A stretch of DNA of 64,000 nucleotides from Escherichia phage UPEC06: the sequence record MW250786; one strand, 5' to 3'. A program made the position numbers and the translations under genes. The notes under the pieces were generated by a model. The model had not been told where the DNA came from. It was given only the letters and a program-made list of their open reading frames with translations, and did no database searches. Positions 1-64,000 of this stretch are shown here, one piece after another. Each line of letters starts with the position of its first letter. Positions within the stretch are counted from its first letter, which is position 1.

Positions 1-1075
1 GACAAAACTCTCTTCTCTCTTCTCTCCCCAAATAAATTTTTTCTTGCTTTTATTGCCAGAGTATGGCGGGGCGCTCAGGCTATTGATGGCCCTGATGGAG
101 TCGCTCCTGCACAGTTGGGATAGTTCATCGTTGGATAGTCACAAGTTGGTATTATTCTTCCCACTAGTTGGAACAGGCCAGAACTGGCGGGGCTTGGAGT
201 CGCTCCACTTGTTGGGCGGAAGAAGGGCGCTTGCAGTGCGTATAAGTTGTATTATGTTAAATGCAGATCGAAATCGGTATTCTAAATCAGATTCAGAAGT
301 CAATAGAAATCTTTAACTTTATTGTTGGGGTAGCACAACATTTTTCTTGACAAGTCGAATCAAAGATGTATTGCGGATTGAAAATAAATGAAGATAATGC
401 TTGACTTCTTGGATATTTTGAAAACATCGGACCCCCTCTCCCTCCCCCACGGTCGCCGTGCCTGGCAGCAGTGCCAACGCACTAAACAAAAAAGATGCAA
501 ACATCCTTTGCTTTCTTGCTGACGAAGAACAAGGTCAACAGACAACAGACAAGGCTGGTTAGACTGGTTAGACTGGTTAGCCTCTTCAGGCCATCACCTT
601 TGGGCACAGATATATTTGGGCAGGATAAATAATGGACCCACCCCATAAGAGGTGACTCAAAATTTTGGCGGGAGGGTAAAATAACTAAAAAGATGGCCCT
701 TGTGCTGTGGGTCGTCCTCTACGGGATAGCCTCGATAGGCTCTCTGTGGTTTACATTGTGGGATATACTGACACCACAGGTGTTACTATAGGTGTTACTC
801 CGTGGCAAGAACTAATGTTACTCTGTGGACAATCGGAGTGCCTCGATAGGCAGAATTGACTTGACTCTGTGGGGCAAAGTGGGGGTGTCTCAGTAGGCCA
901 ACAGTGGTTACTCTTTAGGCAAACTACCTAATTTTGGGAGAAACTGATATTTGTGGGAATCGTTGTACGACATTTGGGCATTATTGTAGGTGGAGTACAA
1001 CAGTTTGGAAGGACGATATAGTTTGGTGGGCACAACATTTTGGGATGAGCAGAGGAGTTTGGTTGCAATCCAGAT
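1..1075. repeat. ORF-poor, repeat-rich non-coding region (polypyrimidine tract at 12-30, C-rich tract at 431-447, dispersed ctctgtgg / gttact / cctcgatagg / ttttggg motifs)
   Basis: Read directly: no long ORF with an RBS; composition differs from the coding block; several short motifs recur. Confidence 0.5.
536..581. repeat. Short tandem repeats: caacaga x2 followed by ctggttaga x3 (third copy ctggttagc)
   Basis: Exact tandem units read directly from the sequence. Confidence 0.8.
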
Positions 1076-1102
1076 GCAAAAAGCACCCACTTTTGGGGTG
1101 CT
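1076..1102 (-). terminator. Putative intrinsic terminator downstream of the minus-strand gene ending at 1118
   Basis: Hairpin agcaccc/ggggtgct with an A-run on the plus strand (U-run on the minus transcript). Confidence 0.4.
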
Positions 1103-18617: not shown

Positions 18618-19945
18618 TCTCCTTCAACTTGTCAAGGTATTGTGTAACGTATCTTACTTTTACATTTCTGATTCTGCTCTTGATCTCATCTGGACGTCCC
18701 GCAAATTTTTCAGAAATCTCTTTACTTTCTTTTGAGATTGCAACACTGTTCTGAATAATACCCGCCAGTGCTGAGAATAATACCAGTGGTTGACTGTAGT
18801 TGTCAAACATTTTTTCAGGTCCACGCCCACGAGCATCACAGATGCAAGCGTCCCGCCAGTGCTGAGAATAATACCAGTGGTTGACTGTAGTTGTCAAACA
18901 TTTTTTCAGGTCCACGCCCACGAGCATCACAGATGCAAGCGTCAATAAATTCAGAAAGGAATGCTTGGTCCTTTTCACCACGTAAGGCTACCAACAAGTC
19001 ATAAACTTTCTTCGGCTTCATCTCTTTAATACGGTGAAGTCGTGTATGGTGCTCGGTCACAGCTAAAGCTAACTTCTTCCAACTGTTGGGAACACCAAAC
19101 CGATCGCAAACTTGCTCAGTCAACTTGATACCATGTTCTTCATGCCCGTGTAACTTACCTGTAACCCAATAAATGCATTTCCCTAAGTCGTGACACAATA
19201 CTGCCCACTTTACAGCCTCACTTGCACGAATGGCTTGAGCATAATCCATACAAAGTAAAGTATGAACAAATGCGTCACCTTCTGGATGGTGTTCTTTAGG
19301 TTGAACAACATCATGCAAGTCAACAAGCTCAGGGAATTCACCAAGTTGAGTCAACATACGGATCATTACCGAAGGTTTATTCATCTCCGACTGATCACTG
19401 AAGCATTTCTTAATCTCTGCAAATTTACGCTCTTTTGGAAGTGCACTTAAATCTGCATTTTGGCACATTAACCAAGTTATAGAGTCAATTATAAACTCTC
19501 CACCATATCTGGCGTAAAGTCTTGCTAGTCGGTATACACGTAAGGGGTCTTCGATAAATGCCTTAATAGATACACAACGTAACCGACGATTTTCAATATC
19601 AAGTGCACCACCGCAAGGGTCAATAATTTCACCCGTAGAAAGATCCTTAGCAATAGCATTAATGGTCAAATCTCTTCGCATCAGATCTTGCTCGATTGTA
19701 ACGTCTGGAGAGAACACAACCTCAAAGTCGTGATAACCAGGTCCTGTTGACCTTTCTGTCCTAGCAAGAGCATACTCTTCCTTTGTCTCGGGGTGAAGGT
19801 ATACAGGAAAAGCTGCACCAACTTGAGTGAATCCCTTTTCAATCATTTCTTCATGGGTCGCCCCAACTACAACGTAGTCACGATCCTTGCTTTCAACACC
19901 CATTAGTTCATCCCTCACTTGCCCACCAACAGCATATATTTTCAT
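18604..19945 (-). pseudogene. cca: tRNA nucleotidyltransferase (CCA-adding enzyme, class II, HD domain), reading frame broken by the 91-bp duplication
   Basis: N-terminal GGQVRDELMG..DRD motif; the two ORF-track ORFs (18836-19975 and 18604-18981) share the peptide ACICDARGRGPEKMFDNYSQPLVLFSALAG; removing one repeat copy restores one ~426-aa ORF. Confidence 0.6.
18761..18942. repeat. Exact tandem direct duplication of a 91-bp unit (18761-18851 and 18852-18942) inside the CCA-adding enzyme gene
   Basis: Read directly: identical 91-nt strings back to back; 91 is not a multiple of 3. Confidence 0.9.
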
Positions 19946-20365: not shown

Positions 20366-20875
20366 TTAAGGGTGAATCCAGTAAAAAGGTTTTGTTAAAC
20401 CAAGCTTACCTTTTTTATCCCAAATAAAATAACCGTATGCTGCACCATCTGTTTTACCATCGTCAGTAAAAGAGGGTCGCTTAGATAAAGTAACCAAGTG
20501 ATCAACAGGATATTCCTTCCAGAACTCAACACGTTTGGTACTCTCAAGGAAACCTAAACGAAGAAGCATGATCACCACATCAGCGTCCTTGTGGGCCTTC
20601 TCCACAAACTCTTGAGCTAAATTGTAAGGTGGATTAGTTAACACACAATCTACCTTGTTGTATTCAGTCGCAAGATAATCAACACCTGCTTGAATCTCAG
20701 CCCAAGCTGAACCAATCGGCATTTCATTATAAAAACGCCCAGAGGCTCTGCAAGGTTCCAGATAAGTCCAATCCTGACGGATCGGAACTAAATTCAAGAA
20801 AGCATCCACTGCCCACTTCGGAGTTTCATAACGATCATTTTCACGGCGTTCTGCTTTAGGTTTCAGTGCAGCCAC
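20366..20875 (-). CDS. DNA N6-adenine methyltransferase (small phage Dam-like)
   Basis: YETPKWAV and TNPPY motifs; 169 aa. Confidence 0.65.
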   Translation of the reverse strand: MAALKPKAERRENDRYETPKWAVDAFLNLVPIRQDWTYLEPCRASGRFYNEMPIGSAWAEIQAGVDYLATEYNKVDCVLTNPPYNLAQEFVEKAHKDADVVIMLLRLGFLESTKRVEFWKEYPVDHLVTLSKRPSFTDDGKTDGAAYGYFIWDKKGKLGLTKPFYWIHP

Positions 20876-49407: not shown

Positions 49408-49547
49408 GATTTATTTTTCCTCTCTCCGATACCTTTGTTGAGATACTTAACCAAACTAATACCAAATGCTATCAGCATCATAAACCACACTGTTCCAAAC
49501 TCAACAATGTTCAACCCAAAAGCTACAACATCGTTACACTCTTTCAT
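49404..49547 (-). CDS. small membrane protein (47 aa), below the ORF-track length cutoff
   Basis: ATG at 49547 with a GGAGATGA RBS; hydrophobic core FGTVWFMMLIAFGISLV. Confidence 0.35.
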   Translation of the reverse strand: MKECNDVVAFGLNIVEFGTVWFMMLIAFGISLVKYLNKGIGERKNKS

Positions 49548-49828
49548 CAGATCATCTCCAAAGTTATTAGTACATTATCCAAATCTTCAGCCACAAGCTG
49601 TAAGTCAGGCTTCATACTATCTTCCACACGATGATAAATCAAGCCTTTTTCCACATACTGATTCATTACTCCGTAATAGTTCCCCAAAATGGTGTACCAG
49701 TCACATTCGTAAACAGTCACAACACATACTTTCAGTCCAGCTTTTGCTGAATGCCAAGCTTCTCTCATAGCTTGAAGATGACTTAATTCATTTTCTGATA
49801 ACTTTTTACATTTATTATTCAAAATCAT
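49547..49828 (-). CDS. hypothetical protein (first gene of the minus-strand block)
   Basis: 93-aa ORF immediately downstream of the minus-strand promoter. Confidence 0.5.
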   Translation of the reverse strand: MILNNKCKKLSENELSHLQAMREAWHSAKAGLKVCVVTVYECDWYTILGNYYGVMNQYVEKGLIYHRVEDSMKPDLQLVAEDLDNVLITLEMI

Positions 49829-49863
49829 TATAAAGATAACCTGTTGTTTGTTAAAGTAGAGTC

Positions 49864-49892
49864 ACTATACCTATGTAAAAACTCCATGTCAA
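49864..49892 (-). promoter_or_regulatory. Sigma70-type promoter on the minus strand: -35 TTGACA, 17-bp spacer, -10 TATAGT
   Basis: Plus-strand tgtcaa at 49887-49892 and actata at 49864-49869, exactly 17 bp apart. Confidence 0.6.
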
Positions 49893-49924
49893 GACTTTAA
49901 ATTTAAAAAATTTAGTATAAAATC

Positions 49925-50066
49925 TATAAAAGATCCTTTAAGATCTGTAGATCTATAGATCATATATATAAAAAGATCTTATAAAAGATCTTGTTTTTAT
50001 TGTTTTTAATAATAATTATGAATGAAATGAATAATTATTATATAATTTATGAATGAAATGAATAAA
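49925..50066. repeat. Iteron-like region: six GATC sites in 59 bp (49932-49990), three copies of tataaaagatc, and two copies of tatgaatgaaatgaataa about 30 bp apart
   Basis: Read directly from the sequence; AT-rich divergent intergenic region. Confidence 0.7.
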
Positions 50067-50147
50067 TTATAATGATAAAGGGTTTGGCGAGAGGCTTCGA
50101 GCCAGGGAAATCTAATATAGTATTGTATGCCTAAACGGGCATAAAGG

Positions 50148-50182
50148 GTTTGACATGTTGGGATAGTCATGTAAGATAGCGA
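50148..50182 (+). promoter_or_regulatory. Possible plus-strand promoter (-35 TTGACA, about 16 bp spacer, -10 TAAGAT)
   Basis: TTGACA at 50148-50153; imperfect -10. Confidence 0.3.
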
Positions 50183-50205
50183 AGGTAAGATTAAGAGGAG
50201 GGTCT

Positions 50206-50592
50206 ATGTTTGAGATAAACACCTCTGTTGGGAAGAAGACTTTTGAAGACGATGCGTTCGCCATGCTTCCTCTTCGTTGGGTTACTGAAATGTCCGGCGA
50301 GGATTTAAAGAGGATGATACTTTTGAGGTGGAGATTTTCATTCTTTGCGGAGTTTGCTTCTCGACAGGGCGAATCAGTGGAAACGTGTTTCTATGAATCA
50401 CAGGTGGCATTGTGTGAGTTGTTTCAAATGTCACCGACCAGTCAAGCCAAGGTAAGTGCATTCCTTAAGAAGATGGAGACTGGCGGTTACATCAGGATTT
50501 ACAGAGATAAGGTGATAATCAACGGAAAGTCGAAACCACGTCATTACATTGTGGTTAACGACCCAATACTTAAAGAGAAGTACGGATATTGA
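50206..50592 (+). CDS. hypothetical protein, possible winged-helix DNA-binding protein
   Basis: GAGGAGGG RBS before the ATG; FLKKMETGGYIRIYRDK is winged-helix-like; first plus-strand gene after the iteron region. Confidence 0.5.
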   Translation: MFEINTSVGKKTFEDDAFAMLPLRWVTEMSGEDLKRMILLRWRFSFFAEFASRQGESVETCFYESQVALCELFQMSPTSQAKVSAFLKKMETGGYIRIYRDKVIINGKSKPRHYIVVNDPILKEKYGY

Positions 50593-52219: not shown

Positions 52220-52300
52220 GCGGGTGTATCTCAACGGTCTTCTAAACCGTCGTTAATCGAGTAATTGGAGTATGAAGGTTCGAGTCCTTCCTCCCGCGCT
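52220..52300 (+). tRNA. tRNA-like element: acceptor stem and T-arm present, core non-canonical, anticodon unresolved
   Basis: T-arm gaagg-ttcgagt-ccttc; 9-bp terminal inverted repeat tagcgcggg/cccgcgcta; internal hairpin acggt-cttctaa-accgt. Confidence 0.3.
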
Positions 52301-52317
52301 AAGTTCTTTTGAATATA

Positions 52318-52392
52318 GGCCCTGTAGCTGGACGGTTCAAGCAAGCGACTCATAATCGCCAGACGGTGGTTCGATTCCACCCAGGGCCACCA
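52318..52392 (+). tRNA. tRNA-Met (anticodon CAT; could be initiator, elongator or Ile-lysidine type)
   Basis: Acceptor ggccctg/cagggcc, anticodon loop ctCATaa, T-arm ggtgg-ttcgatt-ccacc, discriminator A, encoded CCA. Confidence 0.7.
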
Positions 52393-52525
52393 TATGAAGT
52401 CGGGTCGCTCCCGATAAGTCGTCGGACTGATGTTCCCTGACTACGAGTTCCCTCAACGATAACGACGTAGATCACAGCAGAAACGGCGCACCCTATTTCA
52501 TTTCTTAATACATTTCAATAAGTTC

Positions 52526-52554
52526 TTGACATAATCCTATTATACTGCTAATAT
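52526..52554 (+). promoter_or_regulatory. Sigma70-type promoter: -35 TTGACA, 17-bp spacer, -10 TAATAT
   Basis: TTGACA at 52526-52531 and TAATAT at 52549-52554. Confidence 0.6.
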
Positions 52555-52581
52555 AGTTATATCTACTGAATTGAGGTGTTT

Positions 52582-52956
52582 ATGGCTAAAGCTGAAATCG
52601 TTACTCGAAAACGCGGTCGGCCTACTACAGAGGAAAGCATTGCAATCAATACTGAGAGAGCAATTCTTCATGCTCGTTCCGAGTTTGCAAGACTTACTCC
52701 TCAAGCAATTAAAACTCTGGAAGGTCTACTGACTTCCGGTACAGAGAAAGTTAAAGAAACTACTGCGAAGTATATTCTTGAGCAAGCTGAAAAGGCAAAC
52801 AATCTGTACACGATGGAAGATAATGAAGAGGATCTGGCAGGAGGAACTACTTCTGCAAATTCAGAAACTCATCAAGGCCCTTCTGACGCATTTAAGGATG
52901 CTATTCCATTAACTACTCAGATTCGTGAGTATAAAATGGCAGAAGGTGAAGATTAA
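52582..52956 (+). CDS. small basic-N-terminus, acidic-C-terminus protein; possible DNA-binding protein or terminase small subunit
   Basis: ATG at 52582 with a GAGG RBS; KRGRPT motif; function not established. Confidence 0.5.
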   Translation: MAKAEIVTRKRGRPTTEESIAINTERAILHARSEFARLTPQAIKTLEGLLTSGTEKVKETTAKYILEQAEKANNLYTMEDNEEDLAGGTTSANSETHQGPSDAFKDAIPLTTQIREYKMAEGED

Positions 52957-52976
52957 GGCTCGCAAGGGCCTTTATT
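52955..52976 (+). terminator. Possible terminator hairpin (GCAA tetraloop) after the 52582-52956 gene
   Basis: Stem aaggctc/gggcctt with gcaa loop followed by tttatt. Confidence 0.35.
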
Positions 52977-53210
52977 AAGAAGTTTTCTTTAAGGTAGTTC
53001 TTACTTTAGCAGAGTAAATCTTCGGCAAGTGGCGGTAACCACTTTACCGATACCTCATAGTTAGTGTTGCGAACACTGGCTACCTTAAAGAGAATTTAAC
53101 TCGTCGAATAAGGAAGATGCTGATCTCAAAGTGAGGTTACTTACCGCAAGGGGTGTGCATAGACTCCCGCTTCCGAATAGACTATGTGGCGAGATGTATT
53201 TGGGGACGTA

Positions 53211-53561
53211 ATGAATAATAAAGACCAAGGTAATGCAGGAGAGGCGTTTGCCATCTATCATTACACCTCATCAGGCCACAAGGTGTCAAAGCCGTTGTTT
53301 GAAAACTGCCCATACGACCTTATCGTTGATAAAGACGGTTGTTTGTTAAGGGTACAAGTTAAAACATCGCGTGTCAAAGCGCCAAGTGGAAGGTATGAGG
53401 TTTCTTTGAGGACCAACGGTGGTAACCGAAGTGGTATAGGAAAGAGCAAAAATATCTCAAGCTCGGAAGTAGACCTACTTTTCGTTCTTATTGAAGACGG
53501 GAGGTATTTTGAAATCCCTTGCTCAGAGGTAGATGGTCAGACTTGCGTGACCGTAGGATAA
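53211..53561 (+). CDS. restriction-endonuclease-like (PD-(D/E)XK-type) nuclease, possible homing endonuclease inside the tRNA island
   Basis: GEAF..YDLIVDKDG..RVQVKTS resembles E...PD...(E/Q)VK; ATG at 53211 with a GGGGA RBS. Confidence 0.35.
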   Translation: MNNKDQGNAGEAFAIYHYTSSGHKVSKPLFENCPYDLIVDKDGCLLRVQVKTSRVKAPSGRYEVSLRTNGGNRSGIGKSKNISSSEVDLLFVLIEDGRYFEIPCSEVDGQTCVTVG

Positions 53562-53562
53562 G

Positions 53563-53649
53563 GCATTGTTAGACCGTAGGGGTAGCGGGGCAGACTGTAA
53601 ATCTGCTGTTCATAGAACTCGGGTGGTTCGACTCCATCACAATGCACCA
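53563..53649 (+). tRNA. tRNA-Tyr (anticodon GTA), type II with a long variable arm
   Basis: Acceptor gcattgt/acaatgc, anticodon arm gcaga-ctGTAaa-tctgc, 15-nt variable arm, T-arm ggtgg-ttcgact-ccatc, discriminator A, CCA. Confidence 0.65.
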
Positions 53650-53652
53650 AAT

Positions 53653-53727
53653 TTTCCGTTAGGCTTATAGGATAAGATTCCCGCAACGTCTCGTTGTGAT
53701 ACTGGTTCGAATCCAGTACGGAAACCA
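53653..53727 (+). tRNA. tRNA-like element: perfect acceptor stem and T-arm, no canonical anticodon arm
   Basis: tttccgt/acggaaa acceptor and actgg-ttcgaat-ccagt T-arm; the middle does not fold into a standard D/anticodon arm by eye. Confidence 0.3.
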
Positions 53728-53733
53728 AATTAA

Positions 53734-53815
53734 TGTGCGGGTAACATAATTGTCACGGTGGCAAGCTGGCCTCCAAAACCAGTCGTAAGGAGTTCGACTC
53801 TTCACCTTCACGCCA
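53734..53815 (+). tRNA. tRNA-like element, possibly tRNA-Trp (CCA anticodon loop ctCCAaa) with an over-long D region
   Basis: Acceptor gtgcggg/ccttcac (1 mismatch), anticodon-like loop ctccaaa, T-loop ttcgact, discriminator G, CCA; 82 nt. Confidence 0.35.
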
Positions 53816-53819
53816 AATA

Positions 53820-53896
53820 CGGTGTATAGCGCAACTTGGTAGCGCGAATGCTTTGGGAGCATTAGGTTCGAGGTTCAAATCCTCGTACACCGACCA
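53820..53896 (+). tRNA. tRNA-Pro (anticodon TGG)
   Basis: Cloverleaf folded by eye: C1-G72, D-arm gcgc/gcgc, anticodon arm aatgc-ttTGGga-gcatt, T-arm cgagg-ttcaaat-cctcg, discriminator A, CCA. Confidence 0.75.
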
Positions 53897-53901
53897 AATA
53901 T

Positions 53902-53977
53902 GCGGGTATAGCTCAGTTGGTAGAGCTTCTGATTTCCAATCAGAATGTCACGAGTTCGAGTCTCGTTATCCGCTCCA
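53902..53977 (+). tRNA. tRNA-Gly (anticodon TCC)
   Basis: gcgggta acceptor, D-arm gctc-agttggta-gagc, anticodon arm tctga-ttTCCaa-tcaga, T-arm acgag-ttcgagt-ctcgt, discriminator U, CCA. Confidence 0.8.
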
Positions 53978-53985
53978 AACAAAAA

Positions 53986-54060
53986 TGGGGATTAGCCAAG
54001 CGGTAAGGCATTGGATTTTGATTCCAACATTCACTGGTTCGAGTCCAGTATCCCCAGCCA
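53986..54060 (+). tRNA. tRNA-Gln (anticodon TTG)
   Basis: U1-A72 acceptor tggggat/atcccca, anticodon arm ttgga-ttTTGat-tccaa, T-arm actgg-ttcgagt-ccagt, discriminator G, CCA. Confidence 0.75.
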
Positions 54061-61946: not shown

Positions 61947-64000
61947 ATGGCTGAATATAATGATAAGGTCGTGGAAGCATTCGTTACTGCTCCTGATCCT
62001 GTCGTAACTACCACTGGTGGTGGAGTTATTTTTAACGGTATTGAAACGGAAGATACTGTATCTACCCTGTTAGTTGGTAATGGTACTGCCTCTTCCCCTC
62101 TGCAAGCTCAAGTTAAGCTATCTCGCCGTGCAGGTAACGCCCTGACTCTGGTTCAGACTGATAACGAGGAAGGCTTGTTTGCTTCCGCTGGAGATGCTAA
62201 AGTATCTACCTCTCAGGCGAACGTTGCAAAATACGTCACTGCGGAAGAAGCTGCTGCTCAAGGTGATGCCAGTTTGGAAGGTGTTCTGGTTGAGCCAGTT
62301 CATGCTACCACTACCGCTGTTGGTGACGCACTGGAAATTACCGCAGATCCTCTGGTTGCTAAAAACTCCCGTATATCCCTGAAAGTTTCCACCTCTTCAA
62401 CTAACGCTTTGTCTGTAGACCCTGATGGTTTGGCAGTTAAAGTTTCCCCCGCTATCGACAACAGCTTGCAAGTTCGTGAAGGTGCACTGTATGTAGCTCC
62501 AGTTGGTGCTGACATTTCTCAAGATGCAGGTAACAAACTGGAACAACGTTCAGATGGTCTGTTTGTAGAAACCATCAAAGGTGACAAAGGCGATCAGGGT
62601 GAACAAGGACCAGCAGGTCCACAAGGCCCAGCCGGAGAAACTGGACCTGCTGGCCCGCAGGGTGAAAAAGGGGATAAAGGGGATACTGGAGAAGTCGGTC
62701 CTGCTGGCGCAACTGGACCTATCGGTCTGACTGGCGCAACTGGCCCTCGTGGTGTAGAAGGTCCTCGTGGCCCTGCTGGTATTGGTATCAACATCCTCGA
62801 CACCTTGGCATCTGAAGATCAATTGCCTTCTGTTGTTGATCTTGCGAATGGTGATACATACGTAATCGGACAGAGTTTCTTTACCGTTATCACTGAAGGT
62901 GGTATCAAACAATGGAGAAACGTAGGTAACTTCGCTGGACCTGAAGGTCTTTCTGCATTTGAAGTTGCTGAAACCGCAGGCTTTGTTGGAACAGTCGATG
63001 ACTGGTTGGCTACCCTTCGTGGTGCTGACGGTATAGGTCTGCAACTCCTTGGTTCTTTCCAGCGTATCGAAGATCTTCCTCAAGAAGAGAACAAACCTGG
63101 TGATGCCTACATCATTCAAGAAAAGATGTATGTTTGGACTGGTGATACAGATGGCTGGCAACCTGTAGGACAGATCGGTCCTGAAGGTCGTTCTGCTTAT
63201 CAGGTCTGGCTGGCTAACGGGAACGTAGGTTCTCAGCGTGAATTCCTTGAATCACTGAAAGGTGAGAAAGGTGATACTGGCGATCAGGGTCCTCAGGGTA
63301 TCCCAGGTGCAGATGGTAAAAATGCTAACGCCATTAATATCTTAGGTTCCGTTGCAGATCAGGCGAGTTTGCCAGAAGGTGCAGATGCAGGTGATGCTTA
63401 CCTGATCGGTACTAACGTATTCGTTTCTGATGGTGCTGGCAACTGGCAAGACTTGGGATCTTTCCAAGGTCCGCAAGGTCCTACTGGTGCTAAAGGCGAC
63501 AAGGGTGACAAAGGGGACAAAGGGGACAAAGGCGATAAAGGTGATGACAACTATGCCATCGCAGTTGCTAACGGTTTCCAAGGATCAGTAAATGAATACC
63601 TTGCATCTATCAAGGGTGAGAAAGGTGACGTTGGTGCAACTGGCCCTCGTGGATTGGCTGGTCCACAAGGTGAACAAGGTCCTGTTGGTGCGGGTCTGAA
63701 TATCCTTGGCTCAGTAGCTTCCGAAGATCAATTACCTCAGACTGGTATTAGTGAAGGTGACGCTTATCTGATTGAAGCTGATCTTTATATCTTCACTGGC
63801 GGTCAGTGGACTAACGTTGGTAACATCAAAGGTCCTCAGGGTGATATTGGTCCTGTAGGTCCACAAGGTCCTATCGGCTTGACTGGTGCACAGGGACCGC
63901 AGGGTGCAACAGGAGCACAAGGCCCTGCTGGCCCACAAGGTGAGACGGGTCCACAAGGTGGTATCGGTCCACAGGGAGAAACTGGAGAGAAAGGCGATAA
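61947..64000 (+). CDS. collagen-like repeat fiber protein (partial; continues past the window end)
   Basis: ATG at 61947 with an AGGAG RBS; open frame to position 64000; G-X-Y tracts (GDKGDQGEQGPAGPQGPAGETGPAGPQGEKGDKGD; GDKGDKGDKGDKGDKGD) alternate with four copies of a ~45-aa NILGSVA..EDQLP..GDAYLI module. Confidence 0.75.
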   Translation, partial: MAEYNDKVVEAFVTAPDPVVTTTGGGVIFNGIETEDTVSTLLVGNGTASSPLQAQVKLSRRAGNALTLVQTDNEEGLFASAGDAKVSTSQANVAKYVTAEEAAAQGDASLEGVLVEPVHATTTAVGDALEITADPLVAKNSRISLKVSTSSTNALSVDPDGLAVKVSPAIDNSLQVREGALYVAPVGADISQDAGNKLEQRSDGLFVETIKGDKGDQGEQGPAGPQGPAGETGPAGPQGEKGDKGDTGEVGPAGATGPIGLTGATGPRGVEGPRGPAGIGINILDTLASEDQLPSVVDLANGDTYVIGQSFFTVITEGGIKQWRNVGNFAGPEGLSAFEVAETAGFVGTVDDWLATLRGADGIGLQLLGSFQRIEDLPQEENKPGDAYIIQEKMYVWTGDTDGWQPVGQIGPEGRSAYQVWLANGNVGSQREFLESLKGEKGDTGDQGPQGIPGADGKNANAINILGSVADQASLPEGADAGDAYLIGTNVFVSDGAGNWQDLGSFQGPQGPTGAKGDKGDKGDKGDKGDKGDDNYAIAVANGFQGSVNEYLASIKGEKGDVGATGPRGLAGPQGEQGPVGAGLNILGSVASEDQLPQTGISEGDAYLIEADLYIFTGGQWTNVGNIKGPQGDIGPVGPQGPIGLTGAQGPQGATGAQGPAGPQGETGPQGGIGPQGETGEKGD

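Follow-up and report, generated by a model that had tools for sequence, protein, structure and literature searches.

A conserved early control module, with two divergent promoters and a predicted winged-helix operator, in an A+T-rich intergenic gap of Escherichia phage UPEC06

The intergenic gap at positions 49829-50205 of a 64,000-nucleotide stretch of Escherichia phage UPEC06 (record MW250786; the window, hereafter, is that whole stretch) lies between two divergently oriented gene blocks, and an earlier note had read it as a methylation-sensitive replication origin with an adjacent initiator, or as an early regulatory switch. Several described systems resemble it in part. With E. coli oriC it shares A+T-rich DNA, closely spaced GATC sites, mostly in the form AGATCT, and flanking transcription units; in the oriC unwinding element AGATCT serves as the 6-mer ATP-DnaA box, and the oriC 13-mers are GATC-led A+T-rich repeats (PMC4285127). 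In contrast to oriC, the gap has no adjoining DnaA 9-mers, matches the 13-mer only with two mismatches, and is not similar to any E. coli genome (comparison with plasmids and E. coli chromosomes gave chance-level hits or none); moreover, the phage is lytic, whereas oriC serves a once-per-cycle replicon. The iteron origins (P1 oriR with RepA, F with RepE, lambda ori with O) also place a small winged-helix gene beside A+T-rich, repeat-bearing DNA, and the recognition of an inverted repeat at its own promoter, as seen with Rep dimers, is predicted for the protein encoded here. P1 oriR, in addition, has a block of GATC repeats, and their methylation is important there. The gap differs from these origins in that one dyad, and no direct-repeat array of protein sites, was found in it, and in that its neighbouring protein is a single-domain product of 128 amino acids (aa) with no above-threshold similarity to Rep, O or DnaD and no plasmid similarity. 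Promoters sensitive to Dam or SeqA (lambda pR with SeqA, Mu mom, pap, agn43, IS10 pIN) likewise have clustered GATC sites upstream of a sigma-70 promoter and, as in Certrevirus, inside it; six sites within 59 bp is a denser arrangement, however, and no site of the OxyR, Lrp or Fur type was found over the GATC sites. Finally, the T7 primary origin and T4 oriF and oriG consist of an A+T-rich element beside strong promoters, and the phage has a T7-type primase-helicase and a family-A polymerase, but the promoters of the gap point away from its A+T-rich core. The module fits known kinds of element and is not a new category.

Identity of the window to the Escherichia phages vB_EcoM-LTH01, A7_1, A73, W70 and A5-4 is 96-100%; these are myoviruses of 137-145 kb that belong to the subfamily Vequintavirinae and have no genus assigned. 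Genome-wide comparisons use LTH01, the closest relative, whose genome of 141 kb is complete. Judged from its sequence and from that of its relatives, the gap holds a multi-part early control module that is real and conserved, composed of two promoters and a newly inferred pair of winged-helix protein and operator. What we observe are the anatomy of the gap, its conservation, its enrichment in GATC, the fold of the protein encoded beside it and the co-variation of that protein with the DNA. The gap is 377 bp long, A+T-rich (27% G+C) and divides a minus-strand from a plus-strand gene block, just as the earlier note had it, with a 93-aa open reading frame (ORF) on one side and the 128-aa ORF on the other. 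The early-switch half of the earlier reading is well supported, by two divergent sigma-70-type promoters and the predicted operator. The parts discussed below are these:

49547-49828, minus strand: 93-aa ORF, first gene of the leftward block (PHROG 12865, a family of unknown function)
49864-49892, minus strand: P_L, leftward sigma-70-type promoter, -35 TTGACA (49892-49887), 17-nt spacer, -10 TATAGT (49869-49864), 11 of 12 consensus matches
49893-49924, minus strand: A/T tract upstream of P_L, resembling an UP element, including TTTAAATTTAAA (49896-49907)
49925-49990, no strand: GATC array of six sites, four of them AGATCT, by sequence counts
49991-50008, plus strand: T-rich direct repeat, two copies of TTGTTTTTA, from a repeat scan
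50004-50065, plus strand: two 31-nt tandem repeats with 19-nt cores, TTATGAATGAAATGAATAA, at 50016-50034 and 50047-50065, found nowhere else in the window
50075-50115, plus strand: G+C-rich island (GGCGAGAGGCTTCGAGCCAGGGA) with a small hairpin, GGCT-TCG-AGCC (50093-50103), and the first copy of ATAAAGGGTTTG ahead of it (50075-50086)
50126-50143, no strand: dyad TATGCC-TAAACG-GGCATA, the predicted operator, 6 nt upstream of the P_R -35, from dyad symmetry and co-variation
50150-50177, plus strand: P_R, rightward promoter, -35 TTGACA (50150-50155), 16-nt spacer, -10 TAAGAT (50172-50177), from a promoter scan
50206-50592, plus strand: 128-aa winged-helix-turn-helix protein, first gene of the rightward block (PHROG 8453)
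20366-20875, minus strand: 169-aa DNA methyltransferase-like ORF with an NPPY motif (PHROG 799 'DNA methyltransferase', 2e-62)

The divergent gene pair, with an A+T-rich gap of about 270-600 bp, is found in Certrevirus, Mydovirus, Seunavirus and Henunavirus, in phages of the Av-05/TH18, Kashira and SSBI34 types, and in several metagenomic contigs. Computed over ungapped aligned columns, identity to Certrevirus is 81-84% in the core of the gap (49887-50072), 74-76% in the 93-aa gene, 53-56% in the winged-helix gene and 38-51% in the gap outside the core. On this comparative evidence the gap is functional non-coding DNA conserved across genera, and a conserved early-control module of the genera of the Vequintavirinae other than Vequintavirus. 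The near-consensus minus-strand promoter of the earlier note, here P_L, is present as described, and its -35 hexamer is invariant across both alignments of relatives (A1 and A5). The motif TTTAAATTTAAA in the tract upstream of it occurs five times in the window, against 0.8 expected, and is conserved in Certrevirus; sigma-70-like early promoters bearing UP elements have been described in this phage group (CB7 paper). P_R, a plus-strand promoter missing from the earlier note, keeps its TTGACA in nearly all relatives, with a variable and weak -10, and a ribosome-binding site is found between it and the 128-aa gene. A scan of viral contigs with the pattern TTATGAATN{3,5}ATGAATAAT was also tried and set aside; it gave more than 120 hits, almost all of them chance occurrences in A+T-rich DNA, and among them only phiTE, CR3 and one CR9-like contig bear the winged-helix gene.

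An AlphaFold2 model of the 128-aa protein (predicted local distance difference test 89.5, predicted template modelling score 0.79) is a confident winged helix, with a helix at residues 66-72, a recognition helix at 80-92 and then a long beta-hairpin wing at 96-117, and bears out the winged-helix-like motif that had been noticed in this product. Matches of the protein to winged-helix entries of Pfam and of sequence libraries are sub-threshold, its fold matches among solved structures are generic (TFIIE, MarR, the Cdc6/Orc1 winged helix, DnaD-N), and its nearest non-family neighbours among viral models include the N-terminal domains of replisome organizers and replication initiators, HTH_36 and DUF6945 (E 4e-4 to 1e-2). 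Fold and sequence searches against solved structures cannot tell an initiator from a regulator. The DNA side of the pair is a dyad of the form T-R-T-N-C-C N6 G-G-N-A-Y-A, which lies 3-14 nt upstream of the P_R TTGACA in nearly all relatives; its arms are 90% paired (slid controls, 32-60%), and two arm positions show compensatory changes. At the start of the recognition helix, residue 80 is Gln in the 10 phages that have A at arm position 2 and Arg in the 10 that have G (20/20), and no column of the protein alignment other than those of residues 80 and 81 discriminates cleanly. The Gln and Arg states have switched independently at least twice, once in the window lineage within the Certrevirus-like clade and once in TH18 within the KB57-like clade. 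Gln with adenine and Arg with guanine are textbook pairings. This protein-DNA co-variation is strong indirect evidence for a new result, namely that the 128-aa protein very probably binds the dyad at 50126-50143, inside the gap. The position of the site, abutting the protein's own -35 with variable spacing, is suggestive of autorepression. The earlier note had called the repeats of the gap iterons; the recognizable site of this protein is instead a single dyad at its own promoter. The 19-mers were considered as sites for the winged-helix protein and rejected, being unchanged between Gln-type and Arg-type phages.

LTH01 carries a second exact TATGCC-N6-GGCATA at 4.59 kb (L015 4520-4612), outside the window. 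This copy belongs to a paralogous module of about 90 nt, made of a dyad, a spacer and a G+C hairpin, of which about 40 nt are nearly identical to window 50105-50146; the module lies 13 nt past the stop codon of an early gene and folds at -28 kcal/mol (z = -5). The arrangement suggests a second target of the winged-helix protein, or an additional role as a terminator.

The six GATC sites that had been counted within 59 bp are indeed there (49932, 49942, 49950, 49958, 49975 and 49987, spanning 49932-49990), all of them in the context AGATC and 4/6 in AGATCT. They form the tightest such cluster both in the window, where the next-tightest six sites span 219 bp, and in the 141-kb LTH01 genome, where the next-tightest six span 193 bp; the four AGATCT copies fall within 51 bp, the next-tightest four spanning 919 bp. 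The question raised earlier, whether other regions match this density, is thereby answered, the densest cluster of the LTH01 genome being the one in the gap. When the 391 GATC sites of the window are placed at random, an equally tight cluster arises in 0.9% of trials, and dinucleotide shuffles of the gap, in which 1.09 GATC are expected per 377 bp, never reach six (0/1000). GATC is 1.5-fold over-represented across the window (391 observed versus 259 +/- 15 expected from dinucleotide shuffles), and the local cluster must therefore be weighed against that background; it is still extreme. The gap is also the sole 377-bp segment below 30% G+C in the LTH01 genome (minimum 23%). Seven independent lineages show GATC enrichment at P <= 0.008 and two more show it marginally; for the most part, the enriched lineages have few or no 4-bp palindromes of equal base composition other than GATC. 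The motif is retained among relatives although its copy number ranges between 3 and 6, and a 10-bp indel is found even between phages that are 96% identical. The palindromic AGATCT copies are able to pair as 8-bp hairpins. The genes of LTH01 are ordered in four blocks of alternating orientation, with divergent junctions at 9.0-9.1 kb and at 76.74-77.12 kb, the latter being the gap under study, and convergent junctions at 38.0 kb and 126.5-128.25 kb. The other divergent junction, of 120 bp and with one GATC, suffices for back-to-back promoters, and the extra 250 bp or so found here must do something besides housing promoters.

With regard to methylation, the earlier note had assigned a small Dam-like N6-adenine methyltransferase to 20366-20875. 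A methyltransferase is indicated by the NPPY motif and by the PHROG 799 match of this minus-strand ORF, but its resemblance to the Dam family is far below threshold, both for Pfam PF05869 (Dam; E = 0.05, 13.7 bits, cut-off 28.1) and for NCBIfam TIGR01712 (phage_N6A_met; E = 0.026, 14 bits, cut-off 97). E. coli's own Dam would methylate these GATC sites regardless, and the listed hosts are Enterobacterales, taken as Dam-positive. The virion DNA of CB7 behaves as Dam-methylated in a ClaI digest (CB7 paper).

The remaining parts of the gap are repeats. Of three copies of tataaaagatc reported before, two are exact (TATAAAAGATC, at 49925 and 49980) and the third is inexact, with an extra A. T-tracts related to TTGTTTTTA follow the last GATC in Certrevirus, KB57, PVP-SE1, Hena1, SSBI34 and L148, and among the lineages examined such a tract is absent from L152. 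The 19-mer was correctly said to occur twice (TTATGAATGAAATGAATAA, at 50016 and 50047); together with their flanks, the two copies are the most conserved columns of the gap, almost invariant in nine diverged phages, and they match no host-factor consensus among those compared. A role of the 19-mers as sigma-70 promoters was rejected, the best candidate being ATGAAT-17-TATAAT in copy 1 only, with TATAAG in Certrevirus. Also rejected were a small ORF in the core, which is not conserved, and matches to the IHF and H-NS consensus sequences, which were judged by eye to be partial and are not conserved. The G+C-rich island has counterparts in all Certrevirus-type relatives, and the stretch between it and the dyad is a conserved spacer. 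The repeat ataaagggttt is present in the two copies noted earlier (ATAAAGGGTTTG, at 50075 and 50141), of which the second (50141-50152) overlaps an arm of the dyad and the P_R -35. Two observations on relatives may be added here. In L141/L142 (IMG/VR 3300000333), upstream of the winged-helix homologue, the G+C island (CGTAGCCCGTAGGGTGAGCG..GCGAA) and a GATC-bearing A+T-rich module form three tandem units of about 100 nt, which indicates that modules of the gap expand by duplication. In CR9 (L003 1655-1760) the Certrevirus island GTAGCCC is complementary to the right arm, GGGCTAC, of an imperfect dyad, giving a long-range stem of -32.7 kcal/mol (z = -3.2); the window phage is without such a stem.

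We propose that P_L and P_R, two sigma-70-type promoters, would fire outward, and that the winged-helix protein would bind, probably as a dimer, to the dyad at its own -35 and most likely autoregulate P_R. The core of about 150 bp, with the GATC/AGATCT array, the T-tract and the two 19-mers, would most likely be an origin-type site of unwinding and assembly. Since divergent promoters flank the core, the DNA between them is expected from the twin-domain model to be underwound, and the negative supercoiling produced by the two divergent transcription units would help the core to open; its availability could be modulated by the state of Dam methylation and by SeqA binding to the GATC cluster. In this scheme the autoregulation of P_R, an activity as origin and an involvement of Dam or SeqA are inferred. 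For the core itself, origin function is a plausible candidate, to which we give somewhat less than an even chance. In its favour, the core is the unique extreme of both A+T content and GATC density in the 141-kb genome, repeat arrays grow and shrink among relatives (three units of about 100 nt in L141, 2-3 dyads in KB57-type phages), and the adjacent DNA-binding protein has initiator-like fold neighbours.

Several points weigh against an origin in the core. In each of the four LTH01 blocks, GC skew goes with the sense strand (0.10, 0.15, 0.08 and 0.17), and it flips at every block junction, with no replication term for either candidate origin, and the global minimum of cumulative skew is at 9.1 kb, the other divergent junction. 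The skew check proposed in the earlier note, now run, consequently lends no support to an origin; the flip at the gap is explained by gene orientation. This matches the rV5 genome paper, in which an origin was sought by skew and none was found. No DnaA 9-mer (TTATCCACA-like, with at most one mismatch) is present within 49829-50205; the nearest, at 49575, 49647 and 50550, are all in coding sequence, and the window has 30 against 18.8 expected, a number close to chance. The oriC 13-mer (GATCTnTTnTTTT) is matched at 49966 (minus strand) and 49987 (plus strand), with two mismatches each, and such matches are at chance level (67 versus 51 expected in the window), although the region is the A+T extreme of the genome. 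There is no iteron array: the repeat families of the gap have two copies only, whereas iteron-type origins have at least three direct repeats bound by their initiator. The exact dyad occurs once in the window and is placed like a classical auto-operator (KB57-type relatives have 2-3 dyads), the 19-mers neither co-vary with the protein nor share the half-site of the dyad, and the 128-aa protein has no second domain for helicase recruitment. Enrichment in GATC is weak or absent in KB57, Hena1, TH18 and Kashira, and a GATC cluster would attract sequestration by SeqA, which is awkward for a lytic origin. There is, moreover, a rival region, the 1.75-kb ORF-poor convergent junction at LTH01 126496-128252, whose proximal half is window 1-1100 (corresponding approximately to LTH01 PP430345 127660-126500). 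It is full of short direct repeats, several families of which are spaced at 20 nt; among the repeats are GGTTAGACT x3, TGTTACT x3 and GCCTCGATAGGC x2 in the window, and CCTCTTTGTGT x3 at exactly 20-nt spacing and CCAAAATGTTGT x3 in LTH01, and the global maximum of cumulative GC skew falls in it. Its likely counterpart in Bas54, assigned by position and unaligned, is the 2.5 kb between bas54_0134 and bas54_0135, which tolerates no transposon insertions. The convergent repeat-rich region is at least as good a candidate for the origin, or is a candidate for some other essential cis element.

The rV5/Bas54 group offers a further comparison. On the late-gene side of the same divergent junction, at a distance of about 1 kb, these phages also have a small winged-helix gene; in rV5 it is followed by dyads, TGTCCG-N5-CGGACA, that resemble T-R-T-N-C-C N6, and the adjoining A+T-rich stretch has AGATCT and two GATC sites. 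The arrangement differs in that four tandem dyads stand downstream of the gene, in contrast to the one at the promoter here, and rV5 is without the 128-aa protein. Its own product, rv5_gp075, is a 116-aa winged-helix protein annotated as a 'replication initiation protein' or a 'transcriptional regulator' (Pfam DUF6945 4e-6, HTH_36 3e-5). Homology between the two proteins was considered and rejected: BLASTP gives E = 12, and profile comparison aligns the helix-turn-helix only, at a probability of 7%. In detail, rV5 L014 1560-2160 (NC_011041, about 65060-65660) has gp075, then the four dyads about 21 nt apart, then an A+T-rich stretch with GATCTTTTATTTT, of which the opposite strand is an exact oriC 13-mer consensus, and then a G+C-rich, ORF-poor stretch; this dyad cassette was not described in the 2013 genome paper. 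By analogy, the gp075 cassette looks like a lambda-style origin cassette. Transposon insertions in Bas54 in the gp075-type gene and in the small ORF that follows it (the position of the rV5 dyads) have about one-tenth of the reads of neighbouring genes. A broader scheme is that a methylation-gated lytic origin is common to most genera of the Vequintavirinae, with the array and T-tract as a Dam/SeqA timer, the winged-helix protein marking the site through a co-evolving contact of Gln or Arg with A or G, and rV5-type phages using a non-orthologous cassette (gp075 and four dyads) at the same place; we regard this scheme as unlikely.

The main rival reading, to which we give only slightly less weight, is that the gap serves transcription alone. 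The array, T-tract and 19-mers would then bind host factors (SeqA, bending or nucleoid proteins) or an early phage protein and so determine how strongly and when P_L and P_R fire, the winged-helix protein would be an autorepressor, and there would be no origin. Both promoters are conserved, the GATC array lies 40-100 bp upstream of the P_L -35, and Certrevirus has two more GATC sites in the spacer and -10 region of P_L, as Dam-sensitive promoters do. SeqA activates lambda pR through upstream GATC sites, which also speaks for this reading. The single operator of the window phage and the distance of the dyad from the P_R -35, 3-14 nt in nearly all relatives, are typical of a repressor, the variable spacing argues against a phase-dependent activator, skew has no sign of an origin, and Bas54 insertion mutants in the analogous rV5-type winged-helix gene are viable. 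However, the simple divergent pair of the same genome fits into 120 bp with one GATC, the 19-mers, although the most conserved part of the gap, stand more than 100 bp from either -35 and match no host-factor consensus compared, the region is the genome-wide A+T extreme, and in rV5 the four dyads and the A+T-rich stretch are downstream of the gene and not at its promoter.

A small RNA encoded or structured by the core is improbable; as a short transcript, serving as regulator or primer, it would start from weak rightward promoters in the A/T tract or the repeats and end at the AGATCT hairpin and U-run or at the hairpin of the G+C island. A hairpin AAGAUCUU-AUAA-AAGAUCUU followed by GUUUUUAUUGUUUUU can be drawn (z = -2.1 on the plus and -3.1 on the minus strand), yet such hairpins are the trivial outcome of repeating a palindromic hexamer, their stems have only 2 G-C pairs, and a terminator scan found none. 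The dyad-plus-T-run recurs in Certrevirus and in KB57-type phages, but L152 is without the T-run; the paralogous G+C island of LTH01 is a strong hairpin just past a stop codon (z = -5), while the island of the window folds no better than shuffles (z = -0.9). A weak plus-strand promoter match is present at 49896-49923; no Rfam family was found in the gap at E <= 1 beyond noise, the window having tRNAs only, and there is no conserved small ORF. Less probable still, to the point of being very doubtful, is a packaging initiation (pac) site like that of P1, with its clustered Dam sites. The large terminase gene does lie about 5.5 kb downstream of the clustered GATC sites, but the context of these sites is AGATCT and not the TGATCA/G of P1 pac. 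Several short-read assemblies end within the gap, namely the Logan contigs L150, L151 and L153 and the GenBank drafts 18-1-2, 19-1-2 and 24-2-1, with L150 and L153, from different sequencing runs, starting at the same nucleotide, window 50116 (ATAGTATTGTATGCC...); extreme A+T content and local variation account better for these ends, which probably reflect loss of coverage or variation in A+T-rich repeats. The relatives CB7 and phiTE were reported to be circularly permuted in the manner of T4, with no read-depth step and no BAL-31-sensitive fragment, and this permutation, published for relatives and not for the window phage, disfavours a defined end.

As to the surroundings of the gap, the minus-strand block of the window has small early genes, a ligase, an exonuclease, ribonucleotide reductases and the methyltransferase, and the plus-strand block starts with the 128-aa gene and goes on to tRNAs, the terminase and structural genes. 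The 93-aa ORF has homologues at the same divergent position in every genus examined, with protein identities of 71-75% to Certrevirus-type phages and 23-30% to KB57-type phages and Kashira; in the Certrevirus-type phages it is far better conserved than the winged-helix protein (71-75% versus 45-53% aa identity), and its sole Pfam match is a weak one to DUF4062 (E = 0.008). Five tRNA genes are clustered downstream of the winged-helix operon (52220-54057), and a tail-fibre gene at 62625-63970 has collagen-like Gly-X-Y coding repeats. An exact 91-nt tandem duplication at 18761-18942 falls, by position, inside the gene for CCA tRNA-nucleotidyltransferase, which is frameshifted because 91 is not divisible by three; LTH01 does not contain the exact 91-nt unit, and the duplication is either a real disruption or an artefact of assembly.

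The Vequintavirinae (rV5-like phages) are broad-host-range therapeutic candidates. For these phages the analysis contributes coordinates for testable cis elements, a protein-DNA pair with a predicted specificity-switching residue (Q80/R80), and two competing candidates for the origin, the gap studied here and the convergent repeat-rich region. Should the core of the gap prove to be an origin, it would help in the engineering of these phages and in the interpretation of transposon-essentiality maps; if its role is regulatory only, it would still be among the better-defined early control regions of the subfamily.

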